Position numbers and translations under genes: made by a program
NCBI GenBank assembly: GCA_003696645.1
Contig: RFGN01000738.1
Span: 1 to 34,628 of the forward strand
Length of the DNA: 34,628 nucleotides
Reading direction: 5' to 3'
From: Gammaproteobacteria bacterium
Lineage (GTDB): Bacteria > Pseudomonadota > Gammaproteobacteria > J025
The notes under the pieces: model-generated
Databases searched by the model: none
What the model was told of the DNA's origin: nothing
Seen by the model: only the letters and a program-made list of their open reading frames with translations
Shown: one piece after another, positions 8,641 to 15,259 of the stretch
How the letters are laid out: each line of letters starts with the position of its first letter
Position numbering within the stretch: position 1 is the stretch's first letter

Positions 8641-10080
8641 ATGTTTGATTCTTCCGTAAAGCGAAACAGGCTGTCATTCGCGCTCATGGCAATCATGGTT
8701 ATACCCGCGTTATGCTTGGCAGACGATGGGTGGCGTAAGCCCGCTGTTCAACCCGAAGTTCACAGGTTGATATTGGCTGTCGACGTCGATCACGATGCTT
8801 TTGAAAACCACTTCAAAGGATCAGAGGAAGAACTGGATCGTCGTTTGCGAGAGGAATTCATCCCGGCCTTGAACGAAGCGTTTACGCCGGAGACGGGGAT
8901 CCTGTGGGAGCTTGGTCCGGTCGTGGCAAGACCGAACGTGAACGAATCTCCCTATGCTGACAGTCATGATGGATATGAGATATACCGTCGGTTAAGGGAG
9001 AACTGGGAGCCAAGGGACGATGAGTTCGACCGCGTGATATGTTTTACGGACAGAAGGATCGGCGTGGCGGGCCTGGCGGGGGGCAAGTGGACCGTACTGA
9101 CCGGTGTCTGGGGTGCGTGGTGGCACGAGCTGTCACACACGTTCGGCAATCCGCACGGCGGTCGCGGCACATTGGAGACCGGCTCAATGAGTCAGCGGAA
9201 TGATCGCAGACTCTTGGAGCTGGAAAAAACACATCGTTACACCGACACCGAGGTCGACTCGACCTGGCGGATACTTGCCGAAAATGCGGATCGGTTTGAG
9301 CGGGTGCAAGGCCCTATTGATCCATACCCGCCGTATGCCCGGCTCGATCTTGCAGTCATAGATTCACGCACCGAGTCATCCATCATAATTGACCCGCTGG
9401 ACAACGATCATGACATCAACGGGGACCGAATCCGTATATCTTCATTTGATTCGATCACCCGTTTCGGGGGAAGTGTTAAAAAGACAATCCGCGAGGATGA
9501 CGGAGTGGAGGTACTTCGCTACACACCGCCACCCGGCGGCCGGATGATGCCAGACCGTTTCATGTACACACTGGAAGATGAATCAGGAAGAACGAACCGG
9601 GGGCACGTGGTCGTGCAGGTTCTGGGCACGTTCGACAAGGACACCGAGTACGAAATCACACACACCGAAGAAGGACGGGCCATTGCGGGTGAAACCGACG
9701 GAAAGATCAACATAGGTATCCATGGTTCAGACCTGAACGCGATCGCCCCGTTGATCCGCTGGAAACTCGAACCTGCGGAAGAGGGCGGCTTCTATCTTCA
9801 TCACGTTCATACTGGTATGTACCTGGGATACGCCGGCCCACGACCAAGTGAAGGTGCGGAGGTGCTTTTCATTGATCCGGCTGAAGGCCAAAACCCCCCA
9901 CGATGGACGATCACCCATCACAGTGGCGTGTATTTCACGCTCCAGCCTTATGGCTCGGAACTCAGGCTGCTTTCACCATACCCAGCAAGCACACCACTGA
10001 CTTTAGGACGCCCCAAGAACGAAGTTGATAAAGGATATCGCAGCCAATTCTGGGTTATCGATCCACTTCAATCACCATGA
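8641..10080 (+). CDS. Secreted metzincin-like zinc metallopeptidase with cadherin-like and ricin-type beta-trefoil-like C-terminal domains
   Basis: 479-aa ORF with a signal peptide (LSFALMAIMVIPALCLA/DD). An exact HExxHxxGxxH motif, HELSHTFGNPH, lies at residues 162-172 (nt 9124-9156). A possible Met-turn, GSMSQ, lies at nt 9181-9195. Residues of about 235-330 look like a bacterial cadherin/VCBS-type repeat (IIIDPLDNDHDINGDRIRISSF...LRYTPPPGG..DRFMYTLEDESGRTNRGHVVVQV). The C-terminal 140 aa or so has three evenly spaced (Q/R)xW-like motifs: IRWKL, PRWTI and QFWVI. Confidence 0.6.
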   Translation: MFDSSVKRNRLSFALMAIMVIPALCLADDGWRKPAVQPEVHRLILAVDVDHDAFENHFKGSEEELDRRLREEFIPALNEAFTPETGILWELGPVVARPNVNESPYADSHDGYEIYRRLRENWEPRDDEFDRVICFTDRRIGVAGLAGGKWTVLTGVWGAWWHELSHTFGNPHGGRGTLETGSMSQRNDRRLLELEKTHRYTDTEVDSTWRILAENADRFERVQGPIDPYPPYARLDLAVIDSRTESSIIIDPLDNDHDINGDRIRISSFDSITRFGGSVKKTIREDDGVEVLRYTPPPGGRMMPDRFMYTLEDESGRTNRGHVVVQVLGTFDKDTEYEITHTEEGRAIAGETDGKINIGIHGSDLNAIAPLIRWKLEPAEEGGFYLHHVHTGMYLGYAGPRPSEGAEVLFIDPAEGQNPPRWTITHHSGVYFTLQPYGSELRLLSPYPASTPLTLGRPKNEVDKGYRSQFWVIDPLQSP

Positions 10081-10386
10081 TCACATGTGGCATGAGGCCA
10101 CGGTTTATGATGCCATATTGAAAACACCATTGGCGATACTAAAGCGGCCCGTACATTCTTCTCTGAATTACATTGCCTTTTCTTTGGATGGGAAGATCAT
10201 GCTGTTCATGTCGAAGGCGTGCAATTGAAACCTCTGGGGTCGACTTCAAACCAGACATGAGTCGGGCCGATATTGATCCAATCACCTGCACCGGGAAAAA
10301 CAATTTCTCGACGTTCTCATCTCGCCGATATCGGTCTTCCTCTTGAATCGGGGAAGCGGGGAAACAGGAACGGGTAACCGGCCTAT

Positions 10387-10421
10387 GGAAAAGGCCGCCA
10401 GCCGATCAAGGCGGGCGGCCT
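10387..10421 (-). terminator. Intrinsic terminator candidate downstream of the PEP-CTERM/dockerin gene
   Basis: On the minus strand, AGGCCGCC (10421-10414), a 14-nt loop and GGCGGCCU (10399-10392) form a perfect 8-bp GC-rich stem. UUUCC follows the stem. It begins 35 nt after the stop codon at 10456. Confidence 0.5.
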
Positions 10422-10455
10422 CAATAGAAGGATCACTGAGTGTGGGCACGATGGG

Positions 10456-11460
10456 TCAACGGCGACGCAGAGCAGCCAGACCTCCCAGACCCAGCAAGCA
10501 GAGGGATGCCGGTTCGGGCACGGCAGCGGCCGGGGGCGGCGTGCCGGCGTTCCAGTTCCCCAAAACAATATTGAGGTCCGCGATACCTACGAACGCATCA
10601 CCAGAAGGATCCGCCGCTGCAGGAGCCGGGGGCACGTTCAGATTCCAGGCACCAAGGATCAGGTTAAGGTCACTGATACCAACGAACCCGTCGTTGTCCA
10701 GATCACCATCCAGAGAGCCGGGATTCAGCGTCACGTCAAGCTGAACATTGTCGACCAATGCACGGCCCACCGGCGGGTCCGCCCCCATCAGGATCATCAG
10801 ACGAACCGTGGAATACGGTGCGGTCGCGGTCAACGAGTCGGAAAGCTCATTGGGGCCACCCGATGTTCGGTCGGTTCCTCCGAGGTTTGTCGCGCTGGCG
10901 CCGGTCAACTCGGTAATGGTGGTATCGTCGAAAACGAGGAAGGTACGGAAATCCGCAGAGGTCGATTGATCGCTGCCCGCCAGGTAGGAAACATCAAACA
11001 CATCGCCCGCGGAACCGGCAACGGCATAGGCGTCGGAGACCACCGCGACTTCACCGGCGTTCGTAAACGCCTGACCACCGGGAGCATCCGGGTCGTCAAA
11101 ACCGTACAAACCGTCGATCCCGAAAGCGCCGTTACCTGCGTCAGCAAATGTACGGTAGACCGTCCACCCGTCAATCACCACGCCGACGCCATCGGTGATG
11201 GTCGTAAAATCGGCCAGATCATTAGGCGCTCCGTACTGATAAATGTCATACATCACACGGGGGCGTTCCGGGATGTAAATCGGAACGTCGAAACGGTTGA
11301 CCAGACTGGTCTCATTAATACTGGTGACTTCGAATTCACCATTTCCCAGACCAATGCCGGCCGTGATCAGTGTATCCGCCTGCGTGACGTTCGAGGTCAT
11401 CATGACCGCAGGCACCGCCAAACATAACAGGGACCATTTTCTCATTCGGGAAACCTCCAT
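10456..11460 (-). CDS. PEP-CTERM sorting-domain protein with a two-repeat dockerin-like module
   Basis: 334-aa ORF with a signal peptide (KWSLLCLAVPAVMMTSNVTQA). The C-terminal VPEPASLCLLGLGGLAALRRR (nt 10459-10521) has the three PEP-CTERM elements: a PEP motif, a TM helix and an Arg cluster. About 220 aa of the N-terminal domain is shared with the adjacent paralogue. Confidence 0.85.
   Translation of the reverse strand: MEVSRMRKWSLLCLAVPAVMMTSNVTQADTLITAGIGLGNGEFEVTSINETSLVNRFDVPIYIPERPRVMYDIYQYGAPNDLADFTTITDGVGVVIDGWTVYRTFADAGNGAFGIDGLYGFDDPDAPGGQAFTNAGEVAVVSDAYAVAGSAGDVFDVSYLAGSDQSTSADFRTFLVFDDTTITELTGASATNLGGTDRTSGGPNELSDSLTATAPYSTVRLMILMGADPPVGRALVDNVQLDVTLNPGSLDGDLDNDGFVGISDLNLILGAWNLNVPPAPAAADPSGDAFVGIADLNIVLGNWNAGTPPPAAAVPEPASLCLLGLGGLAALRRR
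10522..10725 (-). other. Dockerin-like module (two Ca-loop/helix repeats) inserted before the PEP-CTERM signal
   Basis: This 68-aa segment reads NPGSLDGDLDNDGFVGISDLNLILGAWN...DPSGDAFVGIADLNIVLGNWNAGTPPPAAA. It contains two copies of a D-x-[DS]-x-D-[GA]-F-V-G-I-x-D-L-N-x-x-L-G-x-W-N pattern. The segment is absent from the paralogue at 11638..12432. Confidence 0.7.
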
Positions 11461-11637
11461 TTAGAGTTTCAAAGGTGACTTGCTTAGTCTCGTATCCCAC
11501 CTCCGCGGCCCGTCAATCCGATCAGACAATGCCGAGAGGAAGATCACGCCTTGCCCAAGACCGATGTTCAATCGGGTGAGGGCCACGGGGGAGGGATATT
11601 CACTTGCGAATCGATCACATCAACACTGACCACTCAA

Positions 11638-12432
11638 TCAACGACGCCGAAGCATCGCCAGCCCTCCCAGCCCCAACAAGGCCAAAGAAGCGGGTTCAGG
11701 GACGAGGGTCACATCCATCTGAACATTGTCCACCAATGCCCGGTTCAGCGCCCCGCCGGCATTACCGGTGATCATCAGGCGAACGGTCGAATATGCCGCA
11801 GGAGCCACAAGCGTATCGGAAAGCTCATTGGGGCCGCCAGCGGTGCGATCCGTACCGCCAAGGTTATCCGCCGCAGCGCCAGCCAGTTCGATGATCGTGG
11901 TGTCATCAAAAACCAGGTATGCACGGAAATCAACCACGGAACTTTGATCGCTGCCGGCCAGGAACGACACGTCGAATTGATCACCGGCGGAACCTGTCAC
12001 GGCGTATGCATCCGACACCACCGCGATTTCACCCGCGTTGGCGAAAGCCTGCCCGCCGGGGGTCGATCCGAACGGGCCGGGCGCGAATCCGTAGAGACCG
12101 TCGACGCCGAAGGCCCCGTTGCTCGAGGTGTAATGCGACCGGTAGATGGTCCAGCCGTCAATCTTCACCCCGATCCCGTCGGTGATGGTAGAGAAATCTG
12201 CCAAATCGGTCGGCGCCCCAAAATTAGCGGAGTCGGTCATGGCCCGGGGCCGATTCAAGGCGATGATGGGTGAACTGAGTGTGTTGACCAGTGAAACCTG
12301 TGACGCGTCCGTAACATGGAACTCCCCGTTACCCGACCCGAGATTGGGCCCGATCAGAGTAGCCGCGTCGCTGGTGTTCAAGGTCACCATCAGAGCGGGG
12401 GCTGCCAACAACATTGCGGTCAAACTTTTCAT
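11638..12432 (-). CDS. PEP-CTERM sorting-domain protein (paralogue without dockerin)
   Basis: 264-aa ORF with a signal peptide (MKSLTAMLLAAPALMVTLNTSDA). The C-terminal signal is VPEPASLALLGLGGLAMLRRR (nt 11641-11703). A long block is conserved with 10456..11460: GQAFxNAGExAVVSDAYAVxGSAGDxFDVSxLAGSDQS...FLVFDDTTIxEL...NLGGTDRTxGGPNELSD...YSTVRLMI. Confidence 0.85.
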   Translation of the reverse strand: MKSLTAMLLAAPALMVTLNTSDAATLIGPNLGSGNGEFHVTDASQVSLVNTLSSPIIALNRPRAMTDSANFGAPTDLADFSTITDGIGVKIDGWTIYRSHYTSSNGAFGVDGLYGFAPGPFGSTPGGQAFANAGEIAVVSDAYAVTGSAGDQFDVSFLAGSDQSSVVDFRAYLVFDDTTIIELAGAAADNLGGTDRTAGGPNELSDTLVAPAAYSTVRLMITGNAGGALNRALVDNVQMDVTLVPEPASLALLGLGGLAMLRRR

Positions 12433-12558: not shown

Positions 12559-12569
12559 GTTAATTTAAC
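12559..12569. promoter_or_regulatory. Perfect palindrome GTTAA-T-TTAAC
   Basis: Read directly. It lies about 130 bp upstream of the PEP-CTERM gene start at 12432 and is preceded by CTA, as in CTAGTTAA at 5216-5223. Confidence 0.45.
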
Positions 12570-12661: not shown

Positions 12662-12672
12662 GTTAAATTAAC
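12662..12672. promoter_or_regulatory. Perfect palindrome GTTAA-A-TTAAC
   Basis: Read directly. This is the second copy in the same spacer, 103 bp from the first, and is followed by an extra ATTTAAC half-site at 12675-12681. Confidence 0.45.
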
Positions 12673-12807: not shown

Positions 12808-15219
12808 TTATTCGATCATCCAAGGCTGGATCGGATATCGGAGATAGGCCGTTGCCTGGTCGTAACGACCACCCGTTGAGGGTGTATCACGGTACCGCTG
12901 GTAGAGGGCTGAACGATACGTGTCGGGGTTCGGAGGATGGGGCCGGTAGACACTTTGATACAGGCCTACTTTGTCAAGATCACAGGCCCGAAACCCGGGG
13001 ATCGGCTGAAATCCGGGTTTGAGACGGAAGTTCAGACGGGCCGGGTCGACAAAATCGTCCATGCTGATCTTCATGGGGGCGTTGTATTCAAACGTATCCG
13101 GCAGATCTTCCATGGTGGGCTTGATACGCGGTTGATCTTCCTCCAACAGACTCCAGTTCGGGTGGATATGGACTACCGCATAAGGGTCGTCTTCCCGAAC
13201 TTGATCGCTGTAGTTATTCAACATCGACCCGTAACTCTGCGCAAAGGGATTCTCATTCATATATCGAGCAAAGACGGGGAAGGCTTCGCTCCAGGGCGGT
13301 CTGTTCCAGCCTTGCGGGCCAACGACCTGCTCCACGTTATAGATCACGTCTTCTTTGCCCCCTCGAGGATAACGCCCACTCTCAAAGTGACGGGCAATCT
13401 CATCAAAAGCGGCCTTGACCTGTTCGGGGGTGCTGGGCATATGCGAAGTCCACCAGATCAATGGGCAATCCAACACGATATTGTCCCGGATGTGGCTGTT
13501 CGGCCCGCCGAACGCGATCGCACCACGCCCGGTCTTGTAAAAAATATTGCTCTGGTAAGTTGTCCCGGTTCCCCCATCATCATTGCGCGCCGCCATCACG
13601 GGATAGCGCGTCGGCTCCTCCATCATGTGATGGAAGAAGTTGTTCTCAACACGGTTACCGTTGCAAAACTTACTGGCCCCCTGGTAGAGCACATTCCAGT
13701 CACCCATCTCCCAACCCACATTGAAGAATTCGTTGTTGACAAAGTCGATGTAAGCGCCCGAGTAAGTGATGCCGGCGTTGGTGTCGTGATAAATGTTGTT
13801 GGTAAACCGGATCCCGCATCCGCTCAACCCGACCCCGCCGTATCCTCTTAAACGGATATGATGAAAATCGCAGTTCTCGATGTAATGATCCGCCCGGATC
13901 AGGTTTCGCAGATCACCCCCATCGATGGTCAAGGCGTTATGCAGGTTGTAGAAATCACAAGCGTTGAAGCCGTGTCGGCTACCTCCCACGACCCGAGCCC
14001 CTCGGCCTATGAAATTGCGAAATATACATGAAGCGATTGTGACGTCGTTACCACCTTCGATCGACAGGCCCAACTCGCCTCCCCCCTCGAAGATGAACCC
14101 ACGCAGGATGATGTGCTGCGCATCCTGAATGCGCACCATGACCGGGCCTCCAGGGATCATGATCCGGGCCTGCTCGATGTCAGGATCGATCGGCCAGAGA
14201 TAGAGCTTCTGCTCTTTCCGGTCGTAATACCACTCACCGGGCATGTCGAGCTCACACAAGATATTTTCAAAATAGAGTCGGCGATTCGGCGCGAATTTCG
14301 GCTTATCATTAGGGTTGGCAAAACCACCACGGTAGCGAACGCCCCCGATACCGTAGCGCGTGGAATCCAGCAGCTGAATCACACCGTCCTGACTGACGCG
14401 TGCAACCTGATTCGCGTCTTTGGTCCAATCGGTGCTGAGATACCCATCCTGCCGAATATCCTGCGTGCGTTGCAGTTCGCGACCCCACGCAGCAAAGTCC
14501 GTTTTTTCCACGGTCGTAAACTTGCCGCCTATCGGTTTATCAAAACTATATTCAGGCTCTTTTTCACCCGCCTTCAACCACCGCAGTGTCGGCCCCATAT
14601 CGATAACCTTGTCCAGGTGCACAAAGCCCCTGTTGGGCCAACGAGCCAACTGCAGGGTGTATTCGTTCCAAGTCAGCATGCCATATTTCCCGTGCCCACC
14701 CGAAAACGCACCTGCAATGAGCTGATCTTGAGACGTTTGAGACGTTTCAGACCCTCCCGGGAATGCTTTCGCCATGGACGTGCCCGCCAGATCAGCCACT
14801 ATGACGTGACCTCGCGCCTTGGGATTCAAATAAGTTAATTCCCGGCTATCAGGCTCTCGAAACAAGTCCGTGGGGACACGGACGCCGGTGGTAAGAATGA
14901 CCTGCTCACCCTCAGCCACGCGATAGGTGATCGGGGCGTTGGCACTGCCGCTGTCCTCCGGCCCCAGCACCAACGGGCCCTCCATACGATATTCACCCGC
15001 ATGTACGATTACCGTGTGAGATTCTTGACGATCCGGGTTCTGTTGGCGATAGCGCCGGATAGCATCCCGAGCCTGACTCAATGATGAAAAGGGCTGTTCT
15101 TGCGTACCGAGTTGATCCGGGCTACCTGCCGGAGAAACATGCCACTGCCCGGCCAACGCCCCCGTGATGCATACAGATACCACCAATAACGAAGCAACTA
15201 AGCGTCCGAGCCTGCCCAT
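12808..15219 (-). CDS. Secreted right-handed parallel beta-helix repeat protein (paralogue of 2596..4827)
   Basis: The ORF track gives 12808..15240 with a TTG start. I prefer the ATG at 15219 (MGRLGRLVASLLVVSVCITGALAG), which is preceded by GGAGG 7 nt upstream. The mature start is WHVSPAGSPDQLGTQEQPFSSLSQARDAIRRY. PbH1-like repeats are present: NDVTIASCIFRNFIGRGARVVGG, HYIENCDFHHIRLRGYGGVGLSG and GIRFTNNIYHDTNAGITYSG. Confidence 0.75.
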   Translation of the reverse strand: MGRLGRLVASLLVVSVCITGALAGQWHVSPAGSPDQLGTQEQPFSSLSQARDAIRRYRQQNPDRQESHTVIVHAGEYRMEGPLVLGPEDSGSANAPITYRVAEGEQVILTTGVRVPTDLFREPDSRELTYLNPKARGHVIVADLAGTSMAKAFPGGSETSQTSQDQLIAGAFSGGHGKYGMLTWNEYTLQLARWPNRGFVHLDKVIDMGPTLRWLKAGEKEPEYSFDKPIGGKFTTVEKTDFAAWGRELQRTQDIRQDGYLSTDWTKDANQVARVSQDGVIQLLDSTRYGIGGVRYRGGFANPNDKPKFAPNRRLYFENILCELDMPGEWYYDRKEQKLYLWPIDPDIEQARIMIPGGPVMVRIQDAQHIILRGFIFEGGGELGLSIEGGNDVTIASCIFRNFIGRGARVVGGSRHGFNACDFYNLHNALTIDGGDLRNLIRADHYIENCDFHHIRLRGYGGVGLSGCGIRFTNNIYHDTNAGITYSGAYIDFVNNEFFNVGWEMGDWNVLYQGASKFCNGNRVENNFFHHMMEEPTRYPVMAARNDDGGTGTTYQSNIFYKTGRGAIAFGGPNSHIRDNIVLDCPLIWWTSHMPSTPEQVKAAFDEIARHFESGRYPRGGKEDVIYNVEQVVGPQGWNRPPWSEAFPVFARYMNENPFAQSYGSMLNNYSDQVREDDPYAVVHIHPNWSLLEEDQPRIKPTMEDLPDTFEYNAPMKISMDDFVDPARLNFRLKPGFQPIPGFRACDLDKVGLYQSVYRPHPPNPDTYRSALYQRYRDTPSTGGRYDQATAYLRYPIQPWMIE

Positions 15220-15259
15220 GTCATGCCTCCATCCAAACAAGCAGCGGAAGTGAAATCAT

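Follow-up and report, generated by a model that had tools for sequence, protein, structure and literature searches.

Two adjacent genes for homologous secreted proteins, one of which carries an additional calcium-loop module exactly in front of its sorting signal, raise the question of what such a module does at this place and whether it points to a cellulosome-like enzyme assembly. They lie at positions 10456–12432 on the minus strand of contig RFGN01000738.1 (assembly GCA_003696645.1, deposited as Gammaproteobacteria bacterium), a stretch of 34,628 nucleotides that was analysed as a whole and is called the window below. We propose that the two genes are old tandem paralogues for PEP-CTERM proteins whose N-terminal domain resembles carbohydrate-binding modules (CBMs), that one of them bears a cassette typical of a planctomycete lineage which would serve as a docking or spacer element next to the anchor, and that no cellulosome is involved. 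We assign this reading a probability of roughly 65%.

The short paralogue (264 amino acids; 11638–12432, minus strand, from the list of open reading frames) consists of a signal peptide, a CBM-like beta-sandwich and a bare PEP-CTERM tail. Its N-terminal domain, here termed domain X, spans residues 24–243 (11704–12363, minus strand), as delimited by a profile match to positions 2–218 and by family alignments, and is followed by the sorting signal VPEPASLALLGLGGLAMLRRR (11641–11703, minus strand). In the long paralogue (10456–11460, minus strand, from the same list), domain X at residues 29–245 (10726–11376, minus strand), a jelly-roll beta-sandwich according to AlphaFold2 and Foldseek, and the sorting signal VPEPASLCLLGLGGLAALRRR (10459–10521, minus strand) enclose an insert of exactly 68 residues (residues 246–313; 10522–10725, minus strand). 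The insert comprises two dockerin- or EF-hand-like loop-helix repeats with proline-rich linkers between and after them, and it sits between the last strand of domain X, which reads VDNVQ(L/M)DVTL in the pair and ends the domain as VDNVQLDVTL in the long copy, and the VPEPASL motif. Both proteins terminate in VPEPASL(A/C)LLGLGGLA(M/A)LRRR immediately before the stop codon, and both tails exceed the cutoffs of the curated hidden Markov models, namely PF07589 with 26.0 bits for the long and 25.3 bits for the short paralogue (cutoff 20.7) and TIGR02595 with 20.1 and 22.4 bits, respectively (cutoff 16). N-terminal signal peptides, judged by eye only, are present on both.

The paralogues share 156 of 245 aligned residues (64%; BLASTP, E = 2e-105). 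Their nucleotide identity is only about 64% as well, and the duplication must therefore be old. The short gene has a strong ribosome-binding site, GGAGGAGGAG, 5' of its ATG. For the long gene the listed start (ATG at 11460, giving 334 amino acids) is probably wrong: a GGAGG lies 8 nucleotides before the second ATG (11445, M6), and the BLASTP alignment pairs M6 of the long protein with M1 of the short one, so that the true start is probably at 11445 and the protein 329 amino acids long. In a fragmented and composite metagenomic bin, in which near-identical copies of the inserted module occur on two further contigs, a chimeric join of paralogous reads could in principle have created the tandem pair or the insert. 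This is extremely improbable, because the contigs that a second assembler yielded for the source study (Logan) run across the insert junction (10209–11083) and the intergenic join (11060–11942), each within a single contig and with zero differences, and because both genes are intact, have their own ribosome-binding sites and are only about 64% identical in DNA. Thus, the tandem minus-strand arrangement, the sorting signals on both proteins and the exact insertion at the signal junction, all of which the original prediction had read from the letters of the window, are confirmed, and the insertion is one case of a lineage-wide cassette and not special to this locus. A look for RNA evidence recovered the locus only from DNA runs of the hot-spring study.

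The nature of the insert is best described as dockerin-like. Against the Pfam model Dockerin_1 (PF00404) the insert alone scores 15.2 bits (E = 0.025) and covers profile positions 2–52 of 57; the whole long protein gives no Dockerin_1 match at E ≤ 1. Repeat 1 (DLDNDGFVGISDLNLILGAWN, residues 253–273; 10642–10704, minus strand), read as DLDNDGFVGISDL, fits the canonical EF-hand loop pattern. Repeat 2 (DPSGDAFVGIADLNIVLGNWN, residues 284–304; 10549–10611, minus strand), read as DPSGDAFVGIADL, departs from the pattern at loop position 6 only, where it has an alanine; across the repeats of the family this position is occupied by G (95 cases), N (19) or D (5). The pattern is seldom hit by chance: across the bin translated in six frames (3.9 million residues) it matches 19 times, and nine of these matches fall in cassette copies. 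Its ligand positions are kept across the cassette alignment, whose consensus is GDLDGDGFVGIxDLNxVLGNWN. An AlphaFold2 model built from 20 cassette sequences (predicted local distance difference test score, pLDDT, 84.7) has the order loop-helix, loop-helix, PEP-CTERM helix, with helices at residues 17–30 and 48–59 and a predicted transmembrane helix, the PEP-CTERM helix, at residues 72–87. Its best neighbours in the Protein Data Bank (PDB), all non-significant, are polcalcins, other EF-hands and the dockerins 2vn5_D, 6kgc_B, 8x39_B and 4fl4_G (clostridial). These features suggest that the module behaves as one of the EF-hand/dockerin kind and probably derives from it. The earlier call of dockerin-like calcium-loop repeats is thereby upheld in part: there are two repeats, the alignment to Dockerin_1 is near full-length and repeat 1 fits the EF-hand pattern, but the Pfam cutoff is missed, a result that the original prediction had named beforehand as counting against it.

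The insert does not stand alone. Module and PEP-CTERM tail form a cassette that, with residues 246–334 of the long protein as query, was recovered from 603 proteins within one length band, typically 70–83% identical over 89 residues. The domains that precede it are highly varied (LamG, SASA-esterase, phosphoesterase, GSDH, LTD and many unannotated ones), and the proteins with NCBI names come from Phycisphaerales. Among the 119 best matches 118 have a PEP tail and 98 exactly two repeats; between the last repeat and the PEP motif lie 10–11 residues in 77 of 94 cases. Species genomes of GTDB contain more than 575 cassette loci, and all named ones among the best 80 are Phycisphaeraceae, Phycisphaerales or Planctomycetota metagenome-assembled genomes (MAGs). 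Nine Phycisphaeraceae MAGs each hold at least 67 to 151 cassette matches, while in 200 other genomes drawn evenly across the phylum the cassette was found once, in a diverged version. Compared with the window's bin, the cassettes of these MAGs are 70–84% identical versus 30–50% for ordinary proteins, which argues for strong selection on the cassette. Apart from its weak similarity to dockerins, the module is covered by no Pfam or NCBIfam model. In the literature we found neither a description of the cassette nor a paper naming both dockerin and PEP-CTERM; dockerin and exosortase were found only treated separately, in archaea. What is new here is the scale, conservation and narrow lineage range of a module placed before the PEP-CTERM signal, together with the rare CBM-like family described below; taken by itself, the event in the tandem pair is a common kind of domain shuffling.

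In the window's own assembly exactly five loci combine two repeats with a (V/I)PEP tail. Besides the long paralogue these are C36 and C112, which are near-identical partial copies, C744 (739 amino acids) and C739 (1,462 amino acids), and their N-terminal parts are unrelated. On the former two contigs (C36:918-1448 and C112:918-1373) near-identical copies of the same gene pair are found, in which the contig breaks off within the cassette-bearing protein; either these are variants between strains, or a repeat has been collapsed. Cassette genes of about 320–450 codons often stand in tandem arrays, 1–1.2 kb apart, for instance at G037:C143, G037:C135, G034:C134, G033:C232 and G039:C7, and tandem families seem to be the usual arrangement of small PEP-CTERM proteins in Phycisphaeraceae MAGs.

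A tight coupling to the tail could mean that the cassette is itself part of the sorting information, an extension of the signal which is read by one exosortase paralogue or by an export factor and which directs its carriers to another destination than bare-tail substrates. The exosortase complement of the lineage would allow this. Two exosortases (E = 1e-45 to 1e-50), of about 690 and 600 amino acids, are present in each of the nine cassette-rich genomes. An EpsI domain is fused to one of them, and the other has another type of C-terminal domain; both pass only the generic model TIGR02602 and no cutoff of a named Xrt subtype. In the longer enzyme the C-terminal approximately 380 residues have no NCBIfam match. 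The strict association of 118 among the 119 best matches with a PEP tail, the fixed distance of 10–11 residues to the PEP motif, the extreme conservation across paralogues and genomes and the presence of two unclassified exosortases, one of them an EpsI fusion, in every cassette-rich genome all count in favour of such an extension, and the archaeal PGF-pre-PGF domain before the PGF-CTERM signal, listed in PMC5244752, offers a precedent. However, 27 bare PEP tails occur among 99 cassette-bearing ones at the loci that were fetched, and one tail consensus describes both. As bare and cassette tails coexist with the same consensus, the cassette is unlikely to be needed for tail recognition; moreover, a giant protein has cassette-type repeats but no PEP tail. 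We consider a role as sorting extension unlikely, though not negligibly so.

The original prediction had gone further and suggested a surface docking system, consistent with a cellulosome-like assembly that degrades glycans. On this reading the dockerin-like module would attach to a cohesin scaffold, and a cellulosome-like or "planctosome"-like enzyme complex would form on the surface. Several observations speak for this: the module aligns to nearly the whole Dockerin_1 profile, two homologues of the paralogues (P0003 and P0036, see below) have cutoff-passing Dockerin_1 domains at the same junction, a further one (P0030) joins Reprolysin, Dockerin_1 and domain X, cohesin matches exist in the bin, and related planctomycetes have been suggested to build a "planctosome" from cohesins, dockerins and M12B peptidases (PMC6461901). 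A Pfam cohesin is, however, found in only one of the nine cassette-rich genomes, each with at least 67 to 151 cassette matches, which leaves an assembly of the cellulosome kind that depends on cohesins without support. The sole cohesin protein of these nine genomes (G031, contig C65; 1,671 amino acids) combines two cohesins with cassette-type repeats, which counts in favour of a cohesin link; it has a glutamine-rich region after the repeats and no PEP-CTERM tail. A cellulosome or planctosome is recognised by a multi-cohesin scaffold together with many dockerin enzymes, and what we find is many module-bearing proteins and, in eight of nine genomes, no cohesin protein. In addition, the module stays below the dockerin cutoff, and a spot directly at a covalent or membrane sorting signal would be odd for a second, non-covalent anchor. 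Thus, the proposed cellulosome-like assembly was not borne out, and binding of the module to a cohesin appears improbable.

The cohesins of the bin do not change this assessment. Three matches above the Pfam cutoff lie on C18, a contig of 6.4 kb, where N/S/T-rich proteins with N-terminal membrane anchors (C18:2223-6434) carry cohesins and canonical dockerins (Dockerin_1, 32.5 bits) in the same proteins. C18 is separated from the contig group of the window both in tetranucleotide space and in GC content at third codon positions (GC3; 0.541 for C18, 0.58–0.62 for the window's group and 0.545–0.558 for the main group), and it has its own canonical dockerins; the cluster probably derives from another organism than the window. 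The assembly (G000, with the window as contig C188), a MAG, is split into 783 contigs; its completeness is 96.5% and its contamination 6.2%. Principal component analysis of tetranucleotides and mixture models resolve three groups, namely a main group of about 1.4 Mb, the window's group of about 0.6–0.7 Mb, which also holds other cassette contigs including C744, C739 and C205, and a third one around C393; as a control, chunks of one contig cluster tightly. The bin is composite, with at least three populations, and the window stems from a minority population. The cassette is absent from all 30 "same-class" relatives of the bin, and the window's DUF1559-like gene (H-X9-DG) has no paralogue elsewhere in the bin. 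PF07596 (DUF1559), considered as a hallmark of the Planctomycetes-Verrucomicrobia-Chlamydiae (PVC) group, had no match in the relatives or in the window itself and is hence uninformative. Because the bin is composite, the search for exosortase and cohesin partners in the window's own genome, which had been suggested as a check, cannot decide the matter within this bin: it yielded no exosortase, and cohesins only on the compositionally different C18 with its own dockerins.

What, then, does the module stand beside? Domain X matches no Pfam or NCBIfam model, and its profile has no meaningful sequence match among PDB chains. A word-based search recovered only three real homologues; an exhaustive profile search of 1.84 billion cluster representatives found 41 members, 27 of them at E ≤ 1e-10. 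Most members are about 260 amino acids long and consist of a signal peptide, domain X and a bare PEP-CTERM tail. In P0003 and P0036, as well as in P0029 and probably in P0042, the PEP tail is missing and another dockerin-type module occupies the junction; in the first two proteins this dockerin passes the Pfam cutoff, with 23.1 and 23.6 bits. Other copies are embedded in giant planctomycete proteins such as P0019 (2,885 amino acids), which contains GH141_M, CBM4_9, CBM6, three F5/8C domains, domain X, Reprolysin_5 and Big_9. Seven giant proteins with domain X (P0019, P0025, P0028, P0030, P0031, P0046 and P0049) share the motif "...LE.R.LLAAD" on the N-terminal side and, at the C-terminus, an acidic tail that closes with motifs like "...DLAF", "...ELLFG" or "...FELWNEW"; these ends may be a separate sorting signal.

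The original prediction could not name this N-terminal domain and asked whether it might be a CBM- or lectin-like beta-sandwich, and the structural models answer in the affirmative. AlphaFold2 predicts a beta-sandwich with pLDDT 85–97 (long paralogue), and Foldseek against the PDB gives E values of about 1e-5, probability 1.0 and target-normalised TM-scores of 0.5–0.6 to CBM61, CBM4, CBM22, CBM16 and alginate-, porphyran- and hyaluronan-binding modules. On the basis of this predicted fold, domain X most likely binds a glycan or glycoprotein. A role in protein binding or structure, as a MAM-like domain, an adhesin or a surface-layer component tied to a peptidase and not to glycoside hydrolases (GHs), has to be weighed against this: the Foldseek matches include MAM domains of meprins and other astacin/metzincin peptidases, domain X is fused to M12-type or S8 peptidases in P0019, P0030 and P0025, and the metzincin next to the pair is homologous to such a fused peptidase. 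Yet CBMs make up most of the top structural neighbours, P0019 also carries CBM6, CBM4_9, F5/8C and GH141_M, and both known genomic contexts are rich in GH genes, so that we regard this alternative as rather unlikely.

These contexts are the window and the P0003 locus. In the window, the same-strand upstream neighbour of the pair encodes an 810-residue beta-helix protein with a weak GH141_M match (12808–15240, minus strand), and the convergent neighbour (8641–10080, plus strand) a peptidase of the metzincin type (HELSHTFGNPH) that also has Big_9 and ricin-type lectin domains. The latter is homologous to the Reprolysin_5 and Big_9 part of P0019 (E = 3e-12), and the beta-helix protein shows a marginal likeness to the N-terminal region of the same giant protein (E = 0.001). 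GH95, GH2, beta-helix/GH141-like and metzincin genes are all present in the neighbourhood, as the original prediction had described it (secreted beta-helix, GH and peptidase genes). The P0003 locus adjoins genes for a Pel9A-like beta-helix, GH97, a GH29 fucosidase and DUF1559, and resembles the GH95, beta-helix, GH2 and metzincin set of the window. Upstream of the short gene, a 375-nucleotide region contains two GTTAA-N-TTAAC palindromes (at about 12559–12569 and 12662–12672) that flank a sigma-70-like promoter match (12638–12610).

The history of the pair can be followed in the family tree. By maximum likelihood, both window proteins and P0003 form a clade (support 99/99) that is nested within a larger one (100/99); the remaining eight proteins of the latter all end in bare PEP tails. 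Because of this nesting, domain X with a bare tail is the ancestral state. From it, as far as the sequences tell, the long copy of the window gained the lineage cassette, and P0003 gained an unrelated dockerin and lost its tail; since the two modules are very different, these gains were most likely independent. The long copy acquired either the 68-residue module alone or, by a swap, the whole C-terminus with the cassette. The tail consensus is the same in the cassette and in the domain X family, and the 66 nucleotides of tail DNA have no power in this question.

Taken together, we consider it well supported that the two proteins are exported, exosortase-sorted and CBM-like, that they functionally belong to the surrounding glycan- or glycoprotein-degrading genes, and that the insert is the lineage's standard anchor-proximal module. 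What the data show directly is the anatomy of the genes, the fold, the distribution of the cassette and its coupling to PEP tails, the co-occurrence with exosortases and the absence of cohesins; binding of glycans and of calcium, cleavage by an exosortase, exposure on the surface and the role of the cassette are inferred. We propose the following course of events. In a Phycisphaerae-type planctomycete of a hot spring, each of these small secreted proteins would be exported by means of its Sec signal peptide, the PEP-CTERM helix would retain the exported protein in the membrane, and an exosortase would then cleave it and hand it on to the cell surface. There, the jelly-roll beta-sandwich of about 215 residues would bind a glycan or glycoprotein and thereby serve the products of the nearby GH141-like, GH95, GH2 and metzincin genes. 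In one copy of a bare-tail ancestor, a module of two putatively calcium-binding loop-helix repeats would have been acquired close to the anchor, 10–11 residues before the PEP motif, which would act as a calcium-stabilised docking or spacer element touching one conserved surface partner other than a cohesin and would not be part of a cellulosome.

A number of results weigh against this proposal. The insert misses the gathering cutoff of Dockerin_1 (15.2 versus 22.9 bits), and Foldseek finds no significant PDB neighbour of the cassette model (E ≥ 1.5). The alanine at loop position 6 of repeat 2 is seen in none of about 124 family repeats, and the calcium site of this repeat may be impaired in the window copy. 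The fold of domain X is shared by MAM domains and HpiC1-type cyclases. No exosortase was found in the window's bin with PF09721, TIGR04178 or tblastn with ten Phycisphaeraceae exosortases, which is weak evidence, as the bin is composite and fragmented. Finally, the G031 protein, which carries cohesins and cassette-type repeats in one chain, leaves some room for a cohesin link.

As to the role of the module, calcium-dependent docking to a single conserved partner that is not a cohesin is our tentative preference, a rigid calcium-stabilised spacer is somewhat less probable, and binding to a cohesin would be surprising. We also speculate, with considerable doubt, that the module is the plug of a surface-display system in a sub-lineage of Phycisphaerae, by which about 70 to 150 or more proteins per cell would dock on one conserved non-cohesin receptor after exosortase processing. 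If this were true, the system would join covalent-type sorting with dockerin-type docking, and the bare and module-bearing twins of the window would be a natural pair sent to two surface locations. In any case, the cassette bears on what exosortase substrates attach to and on how PVC bacteria arrange large sets of secreted enzymes on their surface. With about 85 residues that are far more conserved than their passengers, and with a range limited to a single narrow lineage of planctomycetes, it gives experiments a concrete handle, for which the bare/cassette twins provide a minimal natural comparison. Domain X, as a rare and uncurated CBM-like family tied to GH141-like and M12-type enzymes, may hold a new glycan specificity.

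Compared with known systems, the module is close to type I dockerins (PF00404) in its two loop-helix repeats of about 22 residues with Asp/Asn/Ser at loop positions 1, 3, 5 and 12, in its size of about 55 residues, in the coverage of profile positions 2–52 of 57 and in having clostridial dockerins among its nearest, though non-significant, fold neighbours. It differs from them by a score below the gathering cutoff, by its own stereotyped consensus, by its fusion to a PEP-CTERM signal and by the absence of cohesins from eight of nine cassette-rich genomes. Among the systems nearest to the module are also the dockerin-like modules known from outside cellulosomes (Peer et al. 2009, as cited in PMC6461901 and PMC5244752). 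The "planctosome" hypothesis (Andrei et al. 2019, ISME J, PMC6461901) was put forward for planctomycetes (Nemodlikiaceae); it invokes modules of the dockerin type and reprolysin-like peptidases of M12B, makes no link to cellulose and relies on cohesin-bearing anchoring and adaptor proteins. The planctomycete setting, the dockerin-type modules, the M12B reprolysin-like peptidases and the missing link to cellulose are shared with our case, in which, by contrast, cohesins are as a rule missing and the module is coupled to signals for exosortases.

The archaeal PGF-pre-PGF domain (IPR026453, listed in PMC5244752) is alike by analogy only, being a conserved domain immediately N-terminal of an exosortase/archaeosortase-type signal; it is unrelated in sequence and not EF-hand-like. 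Domain X shares with the jelly-roll modules CBM4/9, CBM16, CBM22 and CBM61 (e.g. 3p6b, 1ulo, 2zex, 4xuo and 2xom) and with MAM domains the fold, and with the CBMs also a GNGxFE-type first strand, an (I/V)D(D/N)V last strand and the position in multidomain enzymes, whereas at about 215 residues it is larger than most of them and belongs to no curated sequence family. The closest relation is to PEP-CTERM/exosortase sorting itself (PMC1569441, TIGR02595, PF07589): the PEP motif, transmembrane helix and arginine cluster are present, the curated models are passed, and all genomes rich in the cassette encode exosortases. Unlike in the known system, these exosortases belong to no named Xrt subtype, with none found in the window's composite bin, and a conserved double calcium-loop module stands right before the signal, in one copy of the window and in about 70 to 150 or more proteins per genome of the lineage.

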